From assembly GCF_044324875.1 (NCBI RefSeq), contig NZ_CP172185.1: a stretch of 64,000 nt of DNA; one strand, given 5' to 3'. Origin of the DNA: Escherichia coli. GTDB lineage: Bacteria; Pseudomonadota; Gammaproteobacteria; Enterobacterales; Enterobacteriaceae. Positions 438 to 8,002 of the stretch are shown one piece after another. The position numbers were made by a program, and so were the translations under genes. The notes beneath the pieces are model-generated. The model saw only the letters and a program-made list of their open reading frames with translations, was not told the DNA's origin and searched no databases. Every line of letters begins with the position of its first letter. Position 1 is the stretch's first letter.

Positions 438-1190
438 TCACTGAGCTGTAATCAATGTACAGCGCTGTACCGGGCGATGGGTAATACCGGTCACAACCGG
501 TAACCCCAGAGACAATGCAACTGTTTTTAACGCAATATACTGGCCGGATGTATCACCCCGGGCAGCCTGAAAACACCTTTCCACCCGGCATTGTCCGTCA
601 GCACTTATCACCCGCCATGTCTGTTGCAATAAATCCACCCGTTGCGAACATTCTTCATCAACCGTGGCACTGACCCGTGGATGGCAAATGCTCGTCTGGC
701 TGAGCAGCAACAGGCATCGCATTGTTGCTCCTCCATGTTGTTCCCGCAACCAGCGTAATACCACCGGTGGTGCTGGACTGGCCGTGTGATTACGTTCAGT
801 AATACGCTCGTGCACCTGTCGGTAAAAGGAAGTACAGAATGCATGAATCTGTTGTCCGTTGATGTTTCCTTCTGCCGAATGGAGTGTGAAGTGGACGGCC
901 AGCAGACGCGGCCAGTGATCCACCGCCTGCTGAATAAAACGCCGGATTTCCACCGGCTCTGAAAGTACGGTTTCGGTTATTTGCACGATTTGATCCCCTT
1001 GAATGTTGCTGAACCGGTGTCGGTACGCAGGAAAGCACGCCGAGACCGGTACGATGCCTGTTACAGCGAAGAACGAGGAATGACAGACGGGGGCAGCAGG
1101 TCGCCAGCACCAGGGACAGGGCTGATTTCCACAATACCAACGCTGGTATTTTGCACATTGCCAGCGTACCGGCATTACAACACGTTTCAT
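438..1190 (-). CDS. putative YfjJ/YagK-like (inovirus Gp2-type) island protein
   Basis: ORF 438..1232 trimmed to the ATG at 1190, which overlaps the alpA stop in an ATGA arrangement (possible translational coupling). Weak resemblance to the two paralogs at 1492-3152 (HFTLH..., ...CLLLLS). Family assignment is tentative. Confidence 0.4.
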   Translation of the reverse strand: MKRVVMPVRWQCAKYQRWYCGNQPCPWCWRPAAPVCHSSFFAVTGIVPVSACFPAYRHRFSNIQGDQIVQITETVLSEPVEIRRFIQQAVDHWPRLLAVHFTLHSAEGNINGQQIHAFCTSFYRQVHERITERNHTASPAPPVVLRWLREQHGGATMRCLLLLSQTSICHPRVSATVDEECSQRVDLLQQTWRVISADGQCRVERCFQAARGDTSGQYIALKTVALSLGLPVVTGITHRPVQRCTLITAQ

Positions 1191-1423
1191 GCGGCGACTC
1201 CCCGTGATGCTTCGATGCGCTGCTGCATCCACTGCTCCACTTCGCTTCTGTACCAGCGGCTGCTGCGGCCCAGTTTGATGGGTTTAGGGAAATGGCCTTC
1301 ACTGATCAGCTTGTAAAACCATTTGTCGGTCATACCAGTGAAGCTGGTGATGTAGTTCATGTCGATCAGGGGATCGTCGGCACGCAGCAATACGCTGTCG
1401 TGACCTGTCATTGAGGTCAACAT
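1187..1423 (-). CDS. alpA: AlpA-family prophage transcriptional regulator
   Basis: 78-aa protein with the C-terminal region FTGMTDKWFYKLISEGHFPKPIKLGRSSRWYRSEVEQWM, typical of AlpA/CP4-57 regulatory proteins; start may be an internal Met. Confidence 0.7.
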   Translation of the reverse strand: MLTSMTGHDSVLLRADDPLIDMNYITSFTGMTDKWFYKLISEGHFPKPIKLGRSSRWYRSEVEQWMQQRIEASRGVAA

Positions 1424-2420: not shown

Positions 2421-3152
2421 TCACCTGCCATCCAGTAGACGCCCCGGCCCACGACTGCAACCATAATTACGTTGCCCGGAACCGTTATGCAACTTCGTTT
2501 CATATTTCACGAGATAACTGGCTCTGTTCCGGGCTTTCTGCATCGCTTCCACATCACCACGCTTGACCCAGAGCACAGCGGATTCACCCGGCTTTTTGTC
2601 TGAAGCCTTCCTGGTATCAGAACATCCACCCGACAAAGGCGTATCATCGGAAGAAGGGCGAGCATCAGATGATGTCGGTTTACGGAAAGGCGTCCGCCTG
2701 GAAAAATGAACCAGTCCATTACCCTGCCAGGGCTCAAGATGCAGAGCACTACACCATGCCAGCTTGATCAGTGTCGCCAGCGAAGAAGGAACGGTGAAAT
2801 CCCCTGGCGAGCACCAGGTATCTTTGTTGAGCAGCAATATCACGTGATAATGTTTCCTGCCTTTTTCCTTGCCAAACTCCCGGCACCAGAAATAACGCAG
2901 AGTGGTTGCACGCACACGCTTGTTGGCACGTCGTTTTTTCCGCTGGTAAGCCTGAATTTTGGCTTTCAGGGATGCAAAAAAACGAGAAATCACCGCTGAA
3001 TCCGGATCGGGATCCATGATGGTGACAGGCATATACTCAGGGAAACGTAAATCCACCCGGATTAACGAGACGGCACGGTGCTGCGCCAGGGCACTGTCGA
3101 GAAGGCTGTCAAAACGGGATAACCAGTAAGCATTATGTATTGGTTGATTCAT
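2421..3152 (-). CDS. YfjJ/YagK-family (inovirus Gp2-like) protein
   Basis: 243-aa protein with LIRVDLRFP and HYHVILLLN motifs as remembered for the YagK/YfjJ family of CP4-type islands; GGAG ribosome-binding site about 10 nt upstream of the ATG on the minus strand. Confidence 0.55.
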   Translation of the reverse strand: MNQPIHNAYWLSRFDSLLDSALAQHRAVSLIRVDLRFPEYMPVTIMDPDPDSAVISRFFASLKAKIQAYQRKKRRANKRVRATTLRYFWCREFGKEKGRKHYHVILLLNKDTWCSPGDFTVPSSLATLIKLAWCSALHLEPWQGNGLVHFSRRTPFRKPTSSDARPSSDDTPLSGGCSDTRKASDKKPGESAVLWVKRGDVEAMQKARNRASYLVKYETKLHNGSGQRNYGCSRGPGRLLDGR

Positions 3153-3159
3153 GATGAGA

Positions 3160-3195
3160 GATCTCCGTTGATTTGGATTGACTTCACATCATTAA
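3160..3195. repeat. conserved leader element, copy B (GATCTCCGTTGATTTGGATTGACTTCACATCATTAA)
   Basis: Immediately 5' of the 2421..3152 start codon on the minus strand (contains its GGAG ribosome-binding site); on the plus strand it contains TTGATT-17 bp-ATTAAT, a promoter-like arrangement. Confidence 0.6.
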
Positions 3196-4282
3196 TCACC
3201 GCAGTAAAACTTTACGGCGTCCTGTCATTAAGCAACACCAGTGGCTCCTGATTAGAACAGAATGAGTTTCCCACGAACAAAAAGACAAACCTACACGCAG
3301 GGTAAAAACACGCAACAACAGCATGAATGGATTTGAAAACAATATGGATGACGAAAAATGTCAAAAGTGAAACGGATCAACAGAACGTGCAAACAAAACG
3401 TCAGAAACGCAATCAGAGCACTTTCTGGCGCTGTGAATCAACAACAACACCAAAACCTACAGCTTAACCACATTACTCAATCACGAATGCGAATGACACG
3501 TTTAAAACCTGTTTACAGATAACGCCGTAACACGATCATCCCCATCACCATCAGAATCGATTTTCTCATCCCGAAAATGTTACGTTTCACTACGCACCAT
3601 AAAAACGATTAACCATCGATAACGTAAATCTCATCTGAATCAAAAAACCAAAACCAATCATCACACTTTCGCAATGCAAGAAGAAAAACCACATCATGAC
3701 GAAAACAATGACCTTACATGAAAAAGCAAAACGTCAGGAATCGTTAATGCCTCAATCTGATTGTTATCAAAACATCCAGAAAGTCGTTTAACAGAATCGT
3801 CGTAAGCACATCGAAAAGAACGTCAGATCACCTCAGGAAAGTTCGGGTTGATTTAGCGTAAAGATACTTTTCTCAGCTTAACGTCGAAACACAAACCAAA
3901 AACCACAAACAACCAAAGCTCAGGAAAGGTTAAACGTCACATCAGTAAAATCGAATAGCAGATTGATTGCTTAAACAGAAAGGTTTTACAGCAGCTTTAA
4001 ACTGATTTTAGCTAACGTAAAGATTTACTAAACTGGATGAGTTTCAGACAAAGCAATGTGTACAGCAATGCTTAATGAAAACACTTATAGGGCTGTTTAT
4101 GAAAACACGTGTATGTCTGGTAAAACACTTAGTAGAAAATACGTGTATAACACTTACTGAAATGCTTAGTAAAAATACTTAGTAAAATATGTAGACTGGC
4201 CCCCTGAATCTCCAGACAACCAGTATCACTTAAATAAGTGATAGTCTTAATACTAGTTTTTAGACTAGTCATTGGAGAACAG

Positions 4283-4648
4283 ATGATTGATGTCTTAGGG
4301 CCGGAGAAACGCAGACGGCGTACCACACAGGAAAAGATCGCAATTGTTCAGCAGAGCTTTGAACCGGGGATGACGGTCTCCCTCGTTGCCCGGCAACATG
4401 GTGTAGCAGCCAGCCAGTTATTTCTCTGGCGTAAGCAATACCAGGAAGGAAGTCTTACTGCTGTCGCCGCCGGAGAACAGGTTGTTCCTGCCTCTGAACT
4501 TGCTGCCGCCATGAAGCAGATTAAAGAACTCCAGCGCCTGCTCGGCAAGAAAACGATGGAAAATGAACTCCTCAAAGAAGCCGTTGAATATGGACGGGCA
4601 AAAAAGTGGATAGCGCACGCGCCCTTATTGCCCGGGGATGGGGAGTAA
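4283..4648 (+). CDS. insC: IS2 transposase OrfA (InsC)
   Basis: [56 protein letters not shown]... matches remembered IS2 InsC (121 aa). Confidence 0.95.
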
Positions 4649-5511
4649 GCTTAGTCAGCCGTTGTCTCCGGGTGTCGCGTGCGCAGTTGCACGTCATTCT
4701 CAGACGAACCGATGACTGGATGGATGGCCGCCGCAGTCGTCACACTGATGATACGGATGTGCTTCTCCGTATACACCATGTTATCGGAGAGCTGCCAACG
4801 TATGGTTATCGTCGGGTATGGGCGCTGCTTCGCAGACAGGCAGAACTTGATGGTATGCCTGCGATCAATGCCAAACGTGTTTACCGGATCATGCGCCAGA
4901 ATGCGCTGTTGCTTGAGCGAAAACCTGCTGTACCGCCATCGAAACGGGCACATACAGGCAGAGTGGCTGTGAAAGAAAGTAATCAGCGATGGTGCTCTGA
5001 CGGGTTCGAGTTCCGCTGTGATAACGGAGAAAAACTGCGAGTCACGTTCGCGCTGGACTGCTGTGACCGTGAGGCACTGCACTGGGCGGTCACTACGGGC
5101 GGCTTCAACAGTGAAACAGTACAGGACGTCATGCTGGGAGCGGTGGAACGCCGCTTCGGCAACGAGCTTCCGGCGTCTCCAGTAGAGTGGCTGACGGATA
5201 ATGGTTCATGCTACCGGGCTAATGAAACACGGCAGTTTGCCCGGATGTTGGGGCTTGAACCGAAGAGCACGGCGGTGCGGAGTCCGGAGAGTAACGGCAT
5301 AGCAGAGAGCTTCGTGAAAACGATAAAGCGTGACTACATCAGTGTCATGCCCAAACCAGACGGGTTAACGGCAGCAAAGAACCTTGCAGAGGCGTTCGAG
5401 CATTATAACGAATGGCATCCGCATAGTGCACTGGGTTATCGCTCGCCACGGGAATATCTACGGCAGCAAGCCAGTAATGGGTTAAGTGATAACAGGTGTC
5501 TGGAAATATAG
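4606..5511 (+). CDS. insD: IS2 transposase OrfB (InsD)
   Basis: 301-aa protein [34 protein letters not shown]... matches remembered IS2 InsD; overlaps insC as in IS2. Confidence 0.95.
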
Positions 5512-6227
5512 GGGCAAATCCAATATGTGTAGAATTATCTATTTAAAAAGATATGTATATAACACTTAATAAAAACATGTGTATATAGTATCATACCGAC
5601 ATTCTCAACATCTTCAGACTTCCATACATACTGGGTGTTGATTTCTCACTTTTACAGCCAGCATGGAGTTTTCTGTCCTAAAAACAGAGCAGATTTACTC
5701 TGGAATTATTTTTCTGCCCCCGTATTTCAGGCCCCAGAAAAGACAATCCGAAGCAAACCGTTTGTCAGCCTCCATATCATCTTTTACCCCCGGAAAGTGA
5801 TCGCGTTTTACAACCAGAATGACAGCCATACTGATTATGTCGTCTCCCGGCCCCCTTCACATATAACATGCATGTCTGTCATTGCTTACTGCTCCACATG
5901 ACCGGATTTCACATACAGGATGCACATTCAGTGTTTTTATCGCCACTATAACAGACAGATTACTGTCGTCTTTACTCTTCAGATTGTTAATCTGACCACA
6001 AGAACAGCCGAACGGCAAAACGCCCTCCACAAGGGGCACATGAACCATAGTTGATAGCATGTTTTTCCTAATCAAGGAATAGTTCAGGAATATTTTATTG
6101 CATTAATAACTGGCGAATAATCGTTCTGTGAACACAAAATGCTTTTATTTGTAAATTTTATTGCATTGCACTCGTTTTATTGATATGGGGTTTAATAACA
6201 GATAACCCGGAAAGAAGGAGAAAACAG

Positions 6228-7019
6228 ATGACATTACGGATTAACGATCAGGGGCGAGATAAACAGAATCAATTTTTATCGAAAAATGGAGAAAATCTGA
6301 ATTCGTTAAAATCGCGTCATGTGCAGGATAGGCATTTACCTGAATGGCTTAAGGATAAAGTTGCAGCATTCTGGTTTTGTCTGGTGATAAAGGATATGAA
6401 AGTGTCAGGGAGCAGTTACTATGAACTTACCATGCAACTTCCCACTTCTGAAGAATCTGTTTGCATCAGTAAGCTGTCATCCTCAACCCATGAGATTCGG
6501 CTGGAGATCATCAGGCGATGGATTGATAGTGTAGCACAGATAGAAACGGAAGCTTTTACTAAAAATCTCGTTGATGCCATCTATAAAAACTGGAAGGAAA
6601 TCGGGAACAAAAACCAGGCTACATGGCTTAAAAAAAATCCGGAACAACTCGAGTGGGCATGGAAATATATTAACATTCGTATTCCCGAGTCACATTTAAC
6701 CTGGTTTTGCCCCGTCAATAACGAAGAGAAACGCATTGCCATCTTAGCATTGCTTAAAATACTGTATCCCGGAGATATACCATGCCAGTACAACGACAAA
6801 GAGTTTCATGTCGGGATCTGCGCTGAAGAACATTTTTACAGAAGAATGCACGACGCTTTCAGAAAACAGTTTATCGACGGGAAAAAAGATAAACGGGTAC
6901 AAATTAACGTAAAGATATCACCGTCCGCAAAAAGCGCTCTGGACAGACTGACCAGAGCGAGGAAAACAACACAGCAGGCTATTCTGGAACAACTGATTCT
7001 GAACGGTAGACTGGATTAA
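6228..7019 (+). CDS. hypothetical protein with a possible C-terminal ribbon-helix-helix-like DNA-binding tail
   Basis: ORF 6180..7019 trimmed to the ATG at 6228, preceded by AAGGAG; AT-rich; C-terminus VQINVKISPSAKSALDRLTRARKTTQQAILEQLI resembles strand-helix RHH motifs (inference). No family recognised. Confidence 0.45.
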   Translation: MTLRINDQGRDKQNQFLSKNGENLNSLKSRHVQDRHLPEWLKDKVAAFWFCLVIKDMKVSGSSYYELTMQLPTSEESVCISKLSSSTHEIRLEIIRRWIDSVAQIETEAFTKNLVDAIYKNWKEIGNKNQATWLKKNPEQLEWAWKYINIRIPESHLTWFCPVNNEEKRIAILALLKILYPGDIPCQYNDKEFHVGICAEEHFYRRMHDAFRKQFIDGKKDKRVQINVKISPSAKSALDRLTRARKTTQQAILEQLILNGRLD

Positions 7020-8002
7020 CTTTCACTACTTCCACTCCTGGCAGTTTTCCTCTTTTTGTAGTGTCTCCCGGCTGCAGGCATCAGGTACTTTTCCGTCATT
7101 TCGTTGCAGAACTCTTCAATGTAGTTAATCAGCTTCTGGTGTGCTTTCACCTTTTCTTCCCCGGGGGACGCTTTCAGATAAATGTCCTCCTTTTCCACAA
7201 GTGTATTTATAAACTCTCCCGGACATCCCTGGTTATAAAGCAACGTGAAAAACAACACATTCCCCAGTCTCTCCAGTAACTGCGATTTAACCCTGTATTG
7301 TTGTTTGCTGAGGATTGATTGTTTTATAAAGCTTAGTCTTGTTAAAAGTTGTTCAAATCCCGGTTCCAGTTTAAAAACAGATTTTAATACCAGGGACTGA
7401 TACTCCTGATAAAAAAGTTCAAACGTCGGGGATGCAGACTGACGAACAGATTTGGCTACAACCCATGGACTAAATCCCATGATTGGGATTTCCTTCGCTC
7501 CCTCCAGCGCACTCAGAGGTAGTCCAGCAATCCATGCGTCCAGCTTAGCCGAATCAATATCCCCGCTCAAAACCTCATACAAACTGCCCGTGAACGGTTG
7601 AGTCGGTTTTTTTGTTGTTTTACCTTCTGATTGCCTGAATCCATCCACTTTTCTCCGGATATTACGCGGAATCAGCATAAAAGGCGGGACATTAAGTGAT
7701 AAACGTTTACCCGTCATACGATACCAGTGGCCCACCTCAACCTTAATCCGTGTATCTGGCCTTGTATCTGGCCTTGTATCTGGCCTTAGCTCAAGTGCTA
7801 TTATGTTAAGCAGGTACAGATAACGCACCGTATAACAGTCAAAATGTTTCTCCGGATCAAACGGCTCTGATCGTTCTCTGCACACAAGTCCGCTGCGCTT
7901 CAGTATTCGCTGGGTATCTTTCCAGGCCTTACTCTGAAGAATGGTGGTAACTCTGGCTTTATTAGCAATCTCACGCAGCGCATCACTTTGTTGTGCCGTC
8001 AT
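7016..8002 (-). CDS. hypothetical protein containing a tandem (RPDT)x3 repeat
   Basis: ORF 7016..8017 trimmed to the ATG at 8002, preceded by GGAGG; AT-rich; 12-bp unit repeated three times at 7752-7787; convergent with and overlapping the 3' end of 6228..7019 by 4 bp. Confidence 0.45.
   Translation of the reverse strand: MTAQQSDALREIANKARVTTILQSKAWKDTQRILKRSGLVCRERSEPFDPEKHFDCYTVRYLYLLNIIALELRPDTRPDTRPDTRIKVEVGHWYRMTGKRLSLNVPPFMLIPRNIRRKVDGFRQSEGKTTKKPTQPFTGSLYEVLSGDIDSAKLDAWIAGLPLSALEGAKEIPIMGFSPWVVAKSVRQSASPTFELFYQEYQSLVLKSVFKLEPGFEQLLTRLSFIKQSILSKQQYRVKSQLLERLGNVLFFTLLYNQGCPGEFINTLVEKEDIYLKASPGEEKVKAHQKLINYIEEFCNEMTEKYLMPAAGRHYKKRKTARSGSSES

Follow-up and report, generated by a model that had tools for sequence, protein, structure and literature searches.

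The first 14 kb of a 64,000-nucleotide stretch of the Escherichia coli contig NZ_CP172185.1 (assembly GCF_044324875.1; the whole stretch is referred to below as the window) are the backbone of a CP4-57-like integrative island, and within a ~1.7-kb non-coding region of this island a series of short AT-rich direct repeats is interrupted by the insertion sequence IS2. What could such repeats be for? The preliminary description of this DNA regarded them as iteron-like sites for a replication initiator or a regulator, in an element that IS2 may have inactivated. We find that the short AT-rich direct repeats are a real array, that they abut one of two short sequences conserved beside genes of the YagK/YfjJ family of HUH endonucleases, and that the array region may mark a replication or transfer origin. 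The reading we prefer, with a probability of roughly 0.4, is that the array would be a lineage-specific iteron or unwinding array of a HUH origin-like site belonging to the YagK/YfjJ gene.

A direct-repeat array split by IS2

The array consists of ~14 units of 11–14 bp each, all on one strand, which fall into two types, AAAAYACTTAGTA (type A) and AAAAYACGTGTAT (type B); every unit has an A-tract followed by a small YAC-N2/3-GTA core. The units start at positions 4055, 4067, 4078, 4102, 4122, 4136, 4149, 4160, 4173, 4186 (the unit split by IS2), 5533, 5545, 5561 and 5573 of the plus strand. The part of the array to the left of IS2 (4055–4191) holds ~10 units, AATGTGTAC, AATGCTTAATG, AAAACACTTATAG, AAAACACGTGTATG, AAAACACTTAGTAG, AAAATACGTGTAT, AACACTTACTG, AAATGCTTAGTAA, AAATACTTAGTAA and the truncated AATATG, and the part to the right (5528–5584) begins with TGTAG, the remainder of the split unit, followed by AATTATCTATTT, AAAAAGATATGTATAT, AACACTTAATAA and AAACATGTGTAT. 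A 52-bp stretch inside the right part is an extra internal duplication that is limited to some islands. All of the repeat motifs quoted in the preliminary description were found where it had placed them.

We counted pairs of 9-mers with at most one mismatch in the 225-bp reconstructed region (GC content 28%), and compared these counts with Markov simulations. We observed 111 direct pairs, as against 14.0 ± 7.4 (maximum 56) in first-order and 27.6 ± 14.9 in second-order simulations, indicating that the repeats are not simply what AT-rich DNA would contain by chance. There was no excess of inverted 9-mer pairs in the same region (7 vs. ~12 expected), and matches to the unit consensus across the window concentrate in the array. 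Tandem Repeats Finder, applied to the uninterrupted allele of strain GF43 that served as our reference (L001), returned a period of 13 bp with 5.2 copies and the consensus AAAATACTTAGTA, and repeat finding on the same allele identified four copies of AAAAYAYGTGTAT, together with longer, higher-order internal duplications of 24–27 nt. The array has a GC content of 24–28%, and no other 100-bp duplex in the 22.6-kb reference locus is less stable (−103.7 vs. −139.2 ± 9.3 kcal/mol).

IS2 occupies positions 4192–5522 (1331 bp, plus strand), with transposase open reading frames (ORFs) at 4238–4648 and 4606–5511 and the terminal sequences TAGACTGG...GCAAATCCA. The intact 5-bp target duplication that had been described, ATATG, is present at 4187–4191 and 5523–5527. 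Removal of IS2 and one copy of ATATG, as had been proposed, yields a 665-nt sequence that three complete E. coli genomes (H1–H3), including that of strain GF43, contain in full and without a mismatch (100% identity), indicating that the reconstructed pre-insertion site is real. The insertion lies within one B-type unit and puts 1.3 kb between ~10 units and the HUH gene on one side, and 4–5 units and the two conserved sequences described below (box 1 and box 2) on the other. Inactivation of the element by IS2 is possible; it is unproven, because the 4–5 units, both boxes and the HUH gene are all intact in the IS2 allele, and because some natural islands function, or at least persist, with ~5 units. 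The identical IS2 junction was not found elsewhere among 5,426 complete E. coli genomes. IS3-family elements have inserted independently within a few hundred base pairs of the array in other strains (H41, H79–H84), which suggests either an insertion hot spot or tolerance of disruption. The allele in the window is a natural insertion mutant of the array for which isogenic-like empty sites exist in sequenced strains.

Two conserved boxes beside a HUH endonuclease gene

On the left side of the array, at 2421–3152 on the minus strand, is an intact gene for a 243-aa protein that is annotated as 'inovirus Gp2 family' and belongs to the YagK/YfjJ family. The protein matches the Pfam families YagK_YfjJ_C (3e-35) and REP_ORF2-G2P (1.3e-8). 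An alignment of 17 homologues, extending down to 34% identity (K-12 YfjJ), showed that the motifs IRVDLRxP, K-K-H-Y-H-V-L-L-L-L-N (the HUH motif) and R-x-x-Y-L-x-K-x-x-x-K (with the catalytic tyrosine) are kept. A search of PDB sequences with the Gp2-family protein gave no match, and a fold search was therefore needed; this returned parvovirus NS1, the Rep protein of adeno-associated virus (AAV), SIRV Rep, Helitron and RepB of pMV158. By motifs and fold, the Gp2-family protein is a HUH (Rep-type) endonuclease, and the gene in the window retains both the HUH motif and the catalytic tyrosine. HUH proteins are known to bind tandem direct repeats beside nick sites.

A homology search found the HUH gene, the spacer that separates it from the array, the array itself and a ~125-bp block on the far side of the array together in 1,878 of the 5,426 complete E. 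coli genomes. Many of the matches stop just past box 2 (query positions ~1227–1241), where differing cargo begins; an alignment of 12 loci shows conservation through ...GATTTACTCTGGAATTATTT and, only a few bases later, a switch to one of at least five unrelated cargo sequences. Identity at aligned positions within E. coli is 83–100% for the array, 84–98% for the block from box 1 to box 2, 74–90% for the spacer and 92–98% for the HUH coding gene, and the number of units varies among islands from ~5 to 13 through whole-unit insertions and deletions. The module is nearly absent from plasmids (3 of 72,556 records), it has no match in the phage collection, and the array contains no P4 repeats. The sole protein match in the phage collection was an unverified 4.5-kb contig without annotation, and was discarded; a protein scan of genome contigs found only two close loci.

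Box 1 (TATAGTATCATACCGACAT, TATATTACCWATC-like; 5584–5602, plus strand) abuts the last repeat unit and is a candidate HUH recognition or nick region, or else a −10 region. Across the family it reads TATATTACC(W)ATC as a consensus, with GACAT a few bases further on. Box 2 (ACTCTGGAATTATT/ACTCTGGAATTAT; 5697–5710, plus strand) follows 102 bp after box 1, and the homology between E. coli islands ends a few bases beyond it. We compared these sequences with distant loci, in which the homologues of the HUH protein have 30–42% identity and come from Brenneria, Providencia, Jinshanibacter, metagenomes and IMG/VR. The intergenic DNA of the distant loci cannot be aligned to that of E. coli, yet box 1 and box 2 recur there, and also beside yfjJ of K-12. 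Of 18 loci, 14 have a single exact copy of the box 2 12-mer, CTCTGGARTTAT, whose side and strand with respect to the gene never change; within the window, the only match to this 12-mer is the one at box 2. Box 1 keeps its order and orientation throughout the E. coli loci, in L014, L015, L017, L020–L022, L031, L033 and L150, and at K-12 yfjJ. The spacing between the two boxes is 78–82 bp in five distant lineages, as compared with the 102 bp of E. coli and 123 bp in one further lineage.

An exact 13-mer from box 1, TATATTACCTATC, is present upstream of four IMG/VR homologues. The same 13-mer lies in the yfjI–yfjJ intergenic region of K-12 MG1655 (L013, 7396–7547), 60 bp upstream of yfjJ (minus strand, 7488), with a degenerate box 2 (GTTTTTACTCTTAAATTAAG) ~50 bp beyond box 1; there is no repeat array in this intergenic region. 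In the reverse direction, the exact 15-mer of box 1 was found in 120 IMG/VR loci, six of which encode a Gp2-family protein; in all six, the 15-mer is upstream of the gene and on the opposite strand. IMG/VR as a whole yielded just 12 Gp2 loci. One of the distant loci, L150, has two tandem Gp2-like ORFs (6259–7467), with box 1 and box 2 upstream of the first; the second ORF lacks the HUH histidines (PYLMVLLLNND) and may be a paralogue without activity. Box 2 was also considered as a sigma-54 promoter and as an inverted copy of box 1, and by eye the resemblance was too weak in both cases.

The gene for the AlpA-family regulator adjoins the HUH gene in most of the distant loci, on either side. The order box 2, box 1, repeats (where present) and HUH gene is constant, irrespective of whether alpA is downstream of the HUH gene (the window, L014, L015 and L017) or upstream of the boxes (L020 and L022). 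Because AlpA switches sides while this order stays the same, it is with the HUH gene, and not with AlpA, that the cis region is linked.

In other lineages, the gene side of box 1 carries repeats of quite different sequence, or none. L020 has five to six copies of TACTAACACTCTATTTATTA(GTATTAATATTATTAA), whereas L015 has units of the AAACACATA type and L017 has TTCTATAYAYTCTCTRTAA units. Relative to simulations, the excess of repeats is significant in four of ~13 lineages, with z scores of 3.2 (E. coli), 2.1, 2.7 and 9.0, and in the lineages tested it is never found on the far side of box 1. Tandem direct repeats adjoin a short family-conserved sequence, with boxes that are kept down to 30% protein identity, and variable repeats beside a conserved box would be the pattern expected of specificity repeats at a conserved nick site. 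The E. coli units share the cores GTGTAT and TAGTA with the left half of box 1, and the units of L015 and L020 contain box-1-like copies, such that the arrays look like local duplications of box-1-proximal sequence. The array of L020 (~3570–3770, reverse strand, upstream of the Jinshanibacter Gp2 gene) is the clearest example of the architecture: near-perfect tandem units of 20/36 bp, with a GC content of 12%, abut box 1.

A candidate origin and competing explanations

The proposal of a HUH origin-like site draws together the intact nickase, the fixed geometry of the boxes across the family, the lineage-specific same-strand repeats beside one of the boxes and the easily melted duplex. In such a site, the HUH protein, possibly with a partner, would bind the head-to-tail units on double-stranded DNA, and the very unstable duplex of the array would aid strand opening. 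The enzyme would then nick the adjoining box 1 (TATAGTATCATACCGACAT here, TATATTACC... in relatives) or box 2 (ACTCTGGAATTAT), and the nick would start rolling-circle replication or single-strand transfer of the excised island. Protein binding, nicking, the choice of box and replication or transfer are steps that we infer. A mechanism in which one protein binds repeats and nicks beside them is established for RepB of pMV158, for AAV and parvovirus Rep-NS1 proteins, and for the Reps of CRESS viruses: pMV158 RepB uses direct repeats, AAV and parvoviruses have tandem tetranucleotide repeats by the nick site, and geminiviruses and circoviruses have iterons beside TAATATTAC/TAGTATTAC.

The E. coli site resembles the double-strand origins of HUH Rep proteins in that a HUH-Tyr protein is encoded beside it, in that tandem repeats of one orientation abut a conserved box, and in that the repeats vary between lineages and the box does not; box 1 (TATATTAC) also bears a superficial resemblance to the CRESS nonanucleotide. 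By contrast with those origins, there is no conserved stem-loop that presents the box, there are two conserved boxes 50–120 bp apart, the repeats are missing in many relatives, and the island protein has 190–243 aa and no helicase domain; moreover, the site is integrated in the chromosome, within a 20–60-kb island. The arrangement is also reminiscent of the Rep-type relaxases and origins of transfer (oriT) of integrative mobilizable elements, since an integrase/AlpA island that lacks transfer machinery of its own encodes a small HUH protein and has non-coding DNA that is conserved. It differs from these in that no relaxase family signature was found and the rightward genes are transcribed away from the site. 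The literature searched holds no report of helper-dependent conjugative transfer of E. coli islands of this kind.

Several observations weigh against an origin. The units are short, of two types and irregularly spaced, at 11–39 bp without helical phasing, and in E. coli the array is ~0.9 kb (0.9–1.1 kb) upstream of the HUH gene. The array is missing, or its repeat excess is not significant, in ~9 of 13 lineages, including K-12 yfjJ, and the array therefore cannot be essential to the mechanism of the family. The HUH gene of the window is full length but many of its E. coli counterparts are truncated; together with the IS insertions near the array, this suggests that the islands tolerate loss of function. 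The genes to the right of the array are transcribed away from it. A −10-like hexamer (TATATT/TATAGT) lies inside box 1, and a sigma-70 promoter-like match, TTAATA-17-TATCAT (5566–5594, plus strand, rightward; a consensus match only), overlaps the last units and box 1, so that box 1 could be a promoter; promoter-like consensus matches in the region number two, as compared with 5.9 expected. Lastly, DNA folding of the segment from box 1 to box 2 in 12 lineages showed no shared stem-loop around either box, although many HUH origins have one. A hairpin-presented nick site is not universal among HUH enzymes, and the missing hairpin therefore lowers the claim of a HUH origin without excluding it. 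The earlier idea of an array of initiator or regulator sites thus holds in part: the array is conserved, a HUH gene is nearby and a box adjoins, but the repeats are not classical iterons and are not universal in the family.

The regulatory half of that idea remains a serious competitor, albeit an unlikely one. On this account the units would be operator or activator sites for a small island regulator, most probably AlpA, an excisionase-type winged-helix protein, and would control a rightward promoter at box 1, transcription towards the HUH and AlpA genes, or both. AlpA is an equally legitimate binder. Its gene (1187–1423, minus strand, as annotated in the syntenic locus L001) belongs to the leftward gene string that includes the HUH gene, downstream of which it lies, and the two genes are neighbours in most distant loci. 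Xis/Cox/Apl-type proteins bind arrays of same-orientation repeats ~10–13 bp apart, a habit that resembles the layout of the array, and the operator arrays of P2, 186 and lambda-like elements likewise have units of ~11–14 bp near promoters, in elements that encode an excisionase-family protein. Orientation and spacing are thus roughly compatible with an excisionase-type array, and the promoter-like match over the last units and box 1, and the position of the array between divergent gene sets in compact lineages such as L015, fit the same account. However, unlike Cox/Apl/Xis arrays, the array follows the HUH gene and not alpA or an attachment site, and the order and orientation of the cis region do so wherever AlpA sits. 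A rightward promoter at box 1 would yield nothing but RNA antisense to alpA or yfjI in L020, L022 and K-12, and the 13–19 conserved nucleotides that run through and past the −10-like hexamer exceed what a promoter needs. AlpA is known to activate intA in K-12, yet the K-12 region (L013), which includes intA, holds a single exact box 1, upstream of yfjJ. Another possible binder is an island protein such as that encoded by a weakly ribbon-helix-helix (RHH)-like 279-aa ORF, a homologue of which is annotated as a RepB regulatory family protein; its match to RHH_1 is not significant (E = 0.07), and the ORF is variable cargo that is missing from many array-bearing islands.

We also consider it improbable, to a similar degree, that the repeats have no sequence-specific partner, being AT-rich slippage DNA, easily melted or curved, which would serve at most as a generic unwinding, H-NS or IS-target region beside functional boxes. 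The number of units changes through whole-unit insertions and deletions and through internal duplications of 24–94 bp, most lineages of the family have no repeats, the array combines its low GC content with the lowest duplex stability in the locus, and IS insertions recur nearby; the partial likeness of the units to the left half of box 1, and the box-1-like copies in L015 and L020, are as expected from local duplication. Such an origin of the repeats does not by itself account for an array that is more highly conserved between islands than the neighbouring spacer (83–100% vs. 74–90% identity), for repeats that in four lineages arose on one and the same flank of box 1 and in none on the opposite flank, or for the single orientation of all units and the common core that follows the A-tract in each. 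Much less probable is a small RNA of ~100 nt encoded between box 1 and box 2, with the array as its upstream promoter region. The promoter-like site at 5566–5594 would be followed at 5685–5710 by a hairpin and T-run, and the block between the boxes is well conserved within E. coli (84–98%); between genera, by contrast, only the boxes are conserved and not the intervening sequence. Other island types do not preserve the imperfect hairpin (CAGAGCAGATTTACTCTG, 5685–5702), which precedes a terminator-like T-run on the minus strand and is broken in them, there is no common fold across lineages, and an Rfam search of the uninterrupted locus found no credible family.

A classical theta-type origin, with iterons for a plasmid- or P4-type initiator and with DnaA boxes, is the most improbable of the explanations considered. 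Like plasmid and P4 iterons, the units of the array are direct repeats arranged in tandem within AT-rich DNA close to a putative initiator gene; the array is the most AT-rich segment, and four B-type units match the DnaA box TTATNCACA at 8/9 positions on the minus strand (TTATACACG, TTCTACACA, TTATATACA and ATATACACA; 4102–4191 and 5528–5590). However, plasmid iterons of the RepA/pi/TrfA type are 17–22 bp long, and the P4 ori/crr repeats bound by alpha are TGTTCACC. The array differs from both in its units of 11–14 bp, in their irregular spacing and two types, and in a different class of initiator; a motif scan of the array found no exact DnaA box, IHF consensus or P4 TGTTCACC iteron, and the module encodes neither a Rep_3 nor an alpha-type initiator. 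In L015 (Providencia), the DnaA-like core does not keep its orientation, and the region has almost no matches among plasmids and none in the phage collection. We therefore rejected a classical plasmid iteron origin on unit size, spacing, the missing exact DnaA and IHF sites and the missing initiator, and a P4 ori/crr on the missing octamer in the array, DNA match in the phage collection and alpha gene in the locus. An oriT with a rightward leading region, prompted by the antirestriction, DUF932 and RadC genes, was given no extra weight because these rightward genes are directed away from the site, an orientation that F-like leading regions are not known to have.

A wider proposal can be made, which we regard as tentative and somewhat doubtful: YagK/YfjJ HUH endonucleases, both boxes and, in those lineages that have one, an iteron array would form a previously unrecognised origin of rolling-circle replication or mobilisation. 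It would be common to the commonest family of integrase–AlpA islands in E. coli and in other Gammaproteobacteria, CP4-57 of K-12 among them. Such an origin would explain amplification or transfer of 'non-mobile' pathogenicity and defence islands after their excision. The backbone of AlpA, HUH gene, GTPase, DUF932, antirestriction, RadC and CbtA/CbeA genes is present in about one-third of complete E. coli genomes and carries virulence and defence cargo, and an origin-like site tied to an intact nickase would supply a concrete mechanism for these islands. K-12 yfjJ, a gene of unknown function with an exact box 1, would be a ready experimental system. In full-text literature searches we found neither the array nor the boxes described, and no account of YagK/YfjJ proteins as HUH nickases. 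The most closely related publication is a 2025 study in PNAS of Pseudomonas islands, which lists an 'inovirus Gp2-like protein' among their core genes with no function assigned; these related islands, with intY, alpA, RadC and the Gp2-like gene, excise and then circularise or concatenate, and a jumbo phage acts as the helper that transduces them (PMC12595487).

Neighbouring features of the island

The leftward genes of the island encode, in order, a ProQ/FinO remnant, a hypothetical protein, AlpA, a second hypothetical protein and the HUH endonuclease; rightward genes for a GTPase, DUF932, antirestriction, RadC, DUF987 and toxin–antitoxin proteins follow the cargo that lies beyond the array region. 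Between the HUH gene and the array is a non-coding spacer (3153–4054) that is A/C-rich on the plus strand, contains the recurring motif AACGTCA(G), is specific to the E. coli lineage and is absent from the distant lineages. Over ~0.85 kb (3200–4040) the spacer is strand-asymmetric, with 338 A, 192 C, 134 G and 177 T on the plus strand; AACGTCA(G) occurs at 3397, 3730, 3819 and 3933, and AACGTAAA at 3621 and 4014. A terminator-like hairpin and T-run (CATGCTGTTGTTGCGTG TTTTT) lie in the spacer at 3309–3325 on the minus strand, ~160 bp upstream of the HUH gene start; being on the strand of the HUH gene, they would stop transcription arriving from the side of the array. In L011 and L012, a 176-aa ORF is inserted in the spacer, and small spacer ORFs are annotated in some genomes.

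To the right of box 1, minus-strand ORF remnants extend over 5690–6075. They comprise a 72-aa ORF (5857–6075) and a downstream frame that, on hand translation, gives a plausible protein; they end at the 5685–5702 hairpin and T-run, look like a frameshifted cargo gene, and are unannotated in RefSeq relatives. The 279-aa ORF mentioned above occupies 6180–7019 on the plus strand and is outside the conserved module. Its RHH-like segment is C-terminal, and its homologue in L007 is annotated as 'replication regulatory RepB family protein'.

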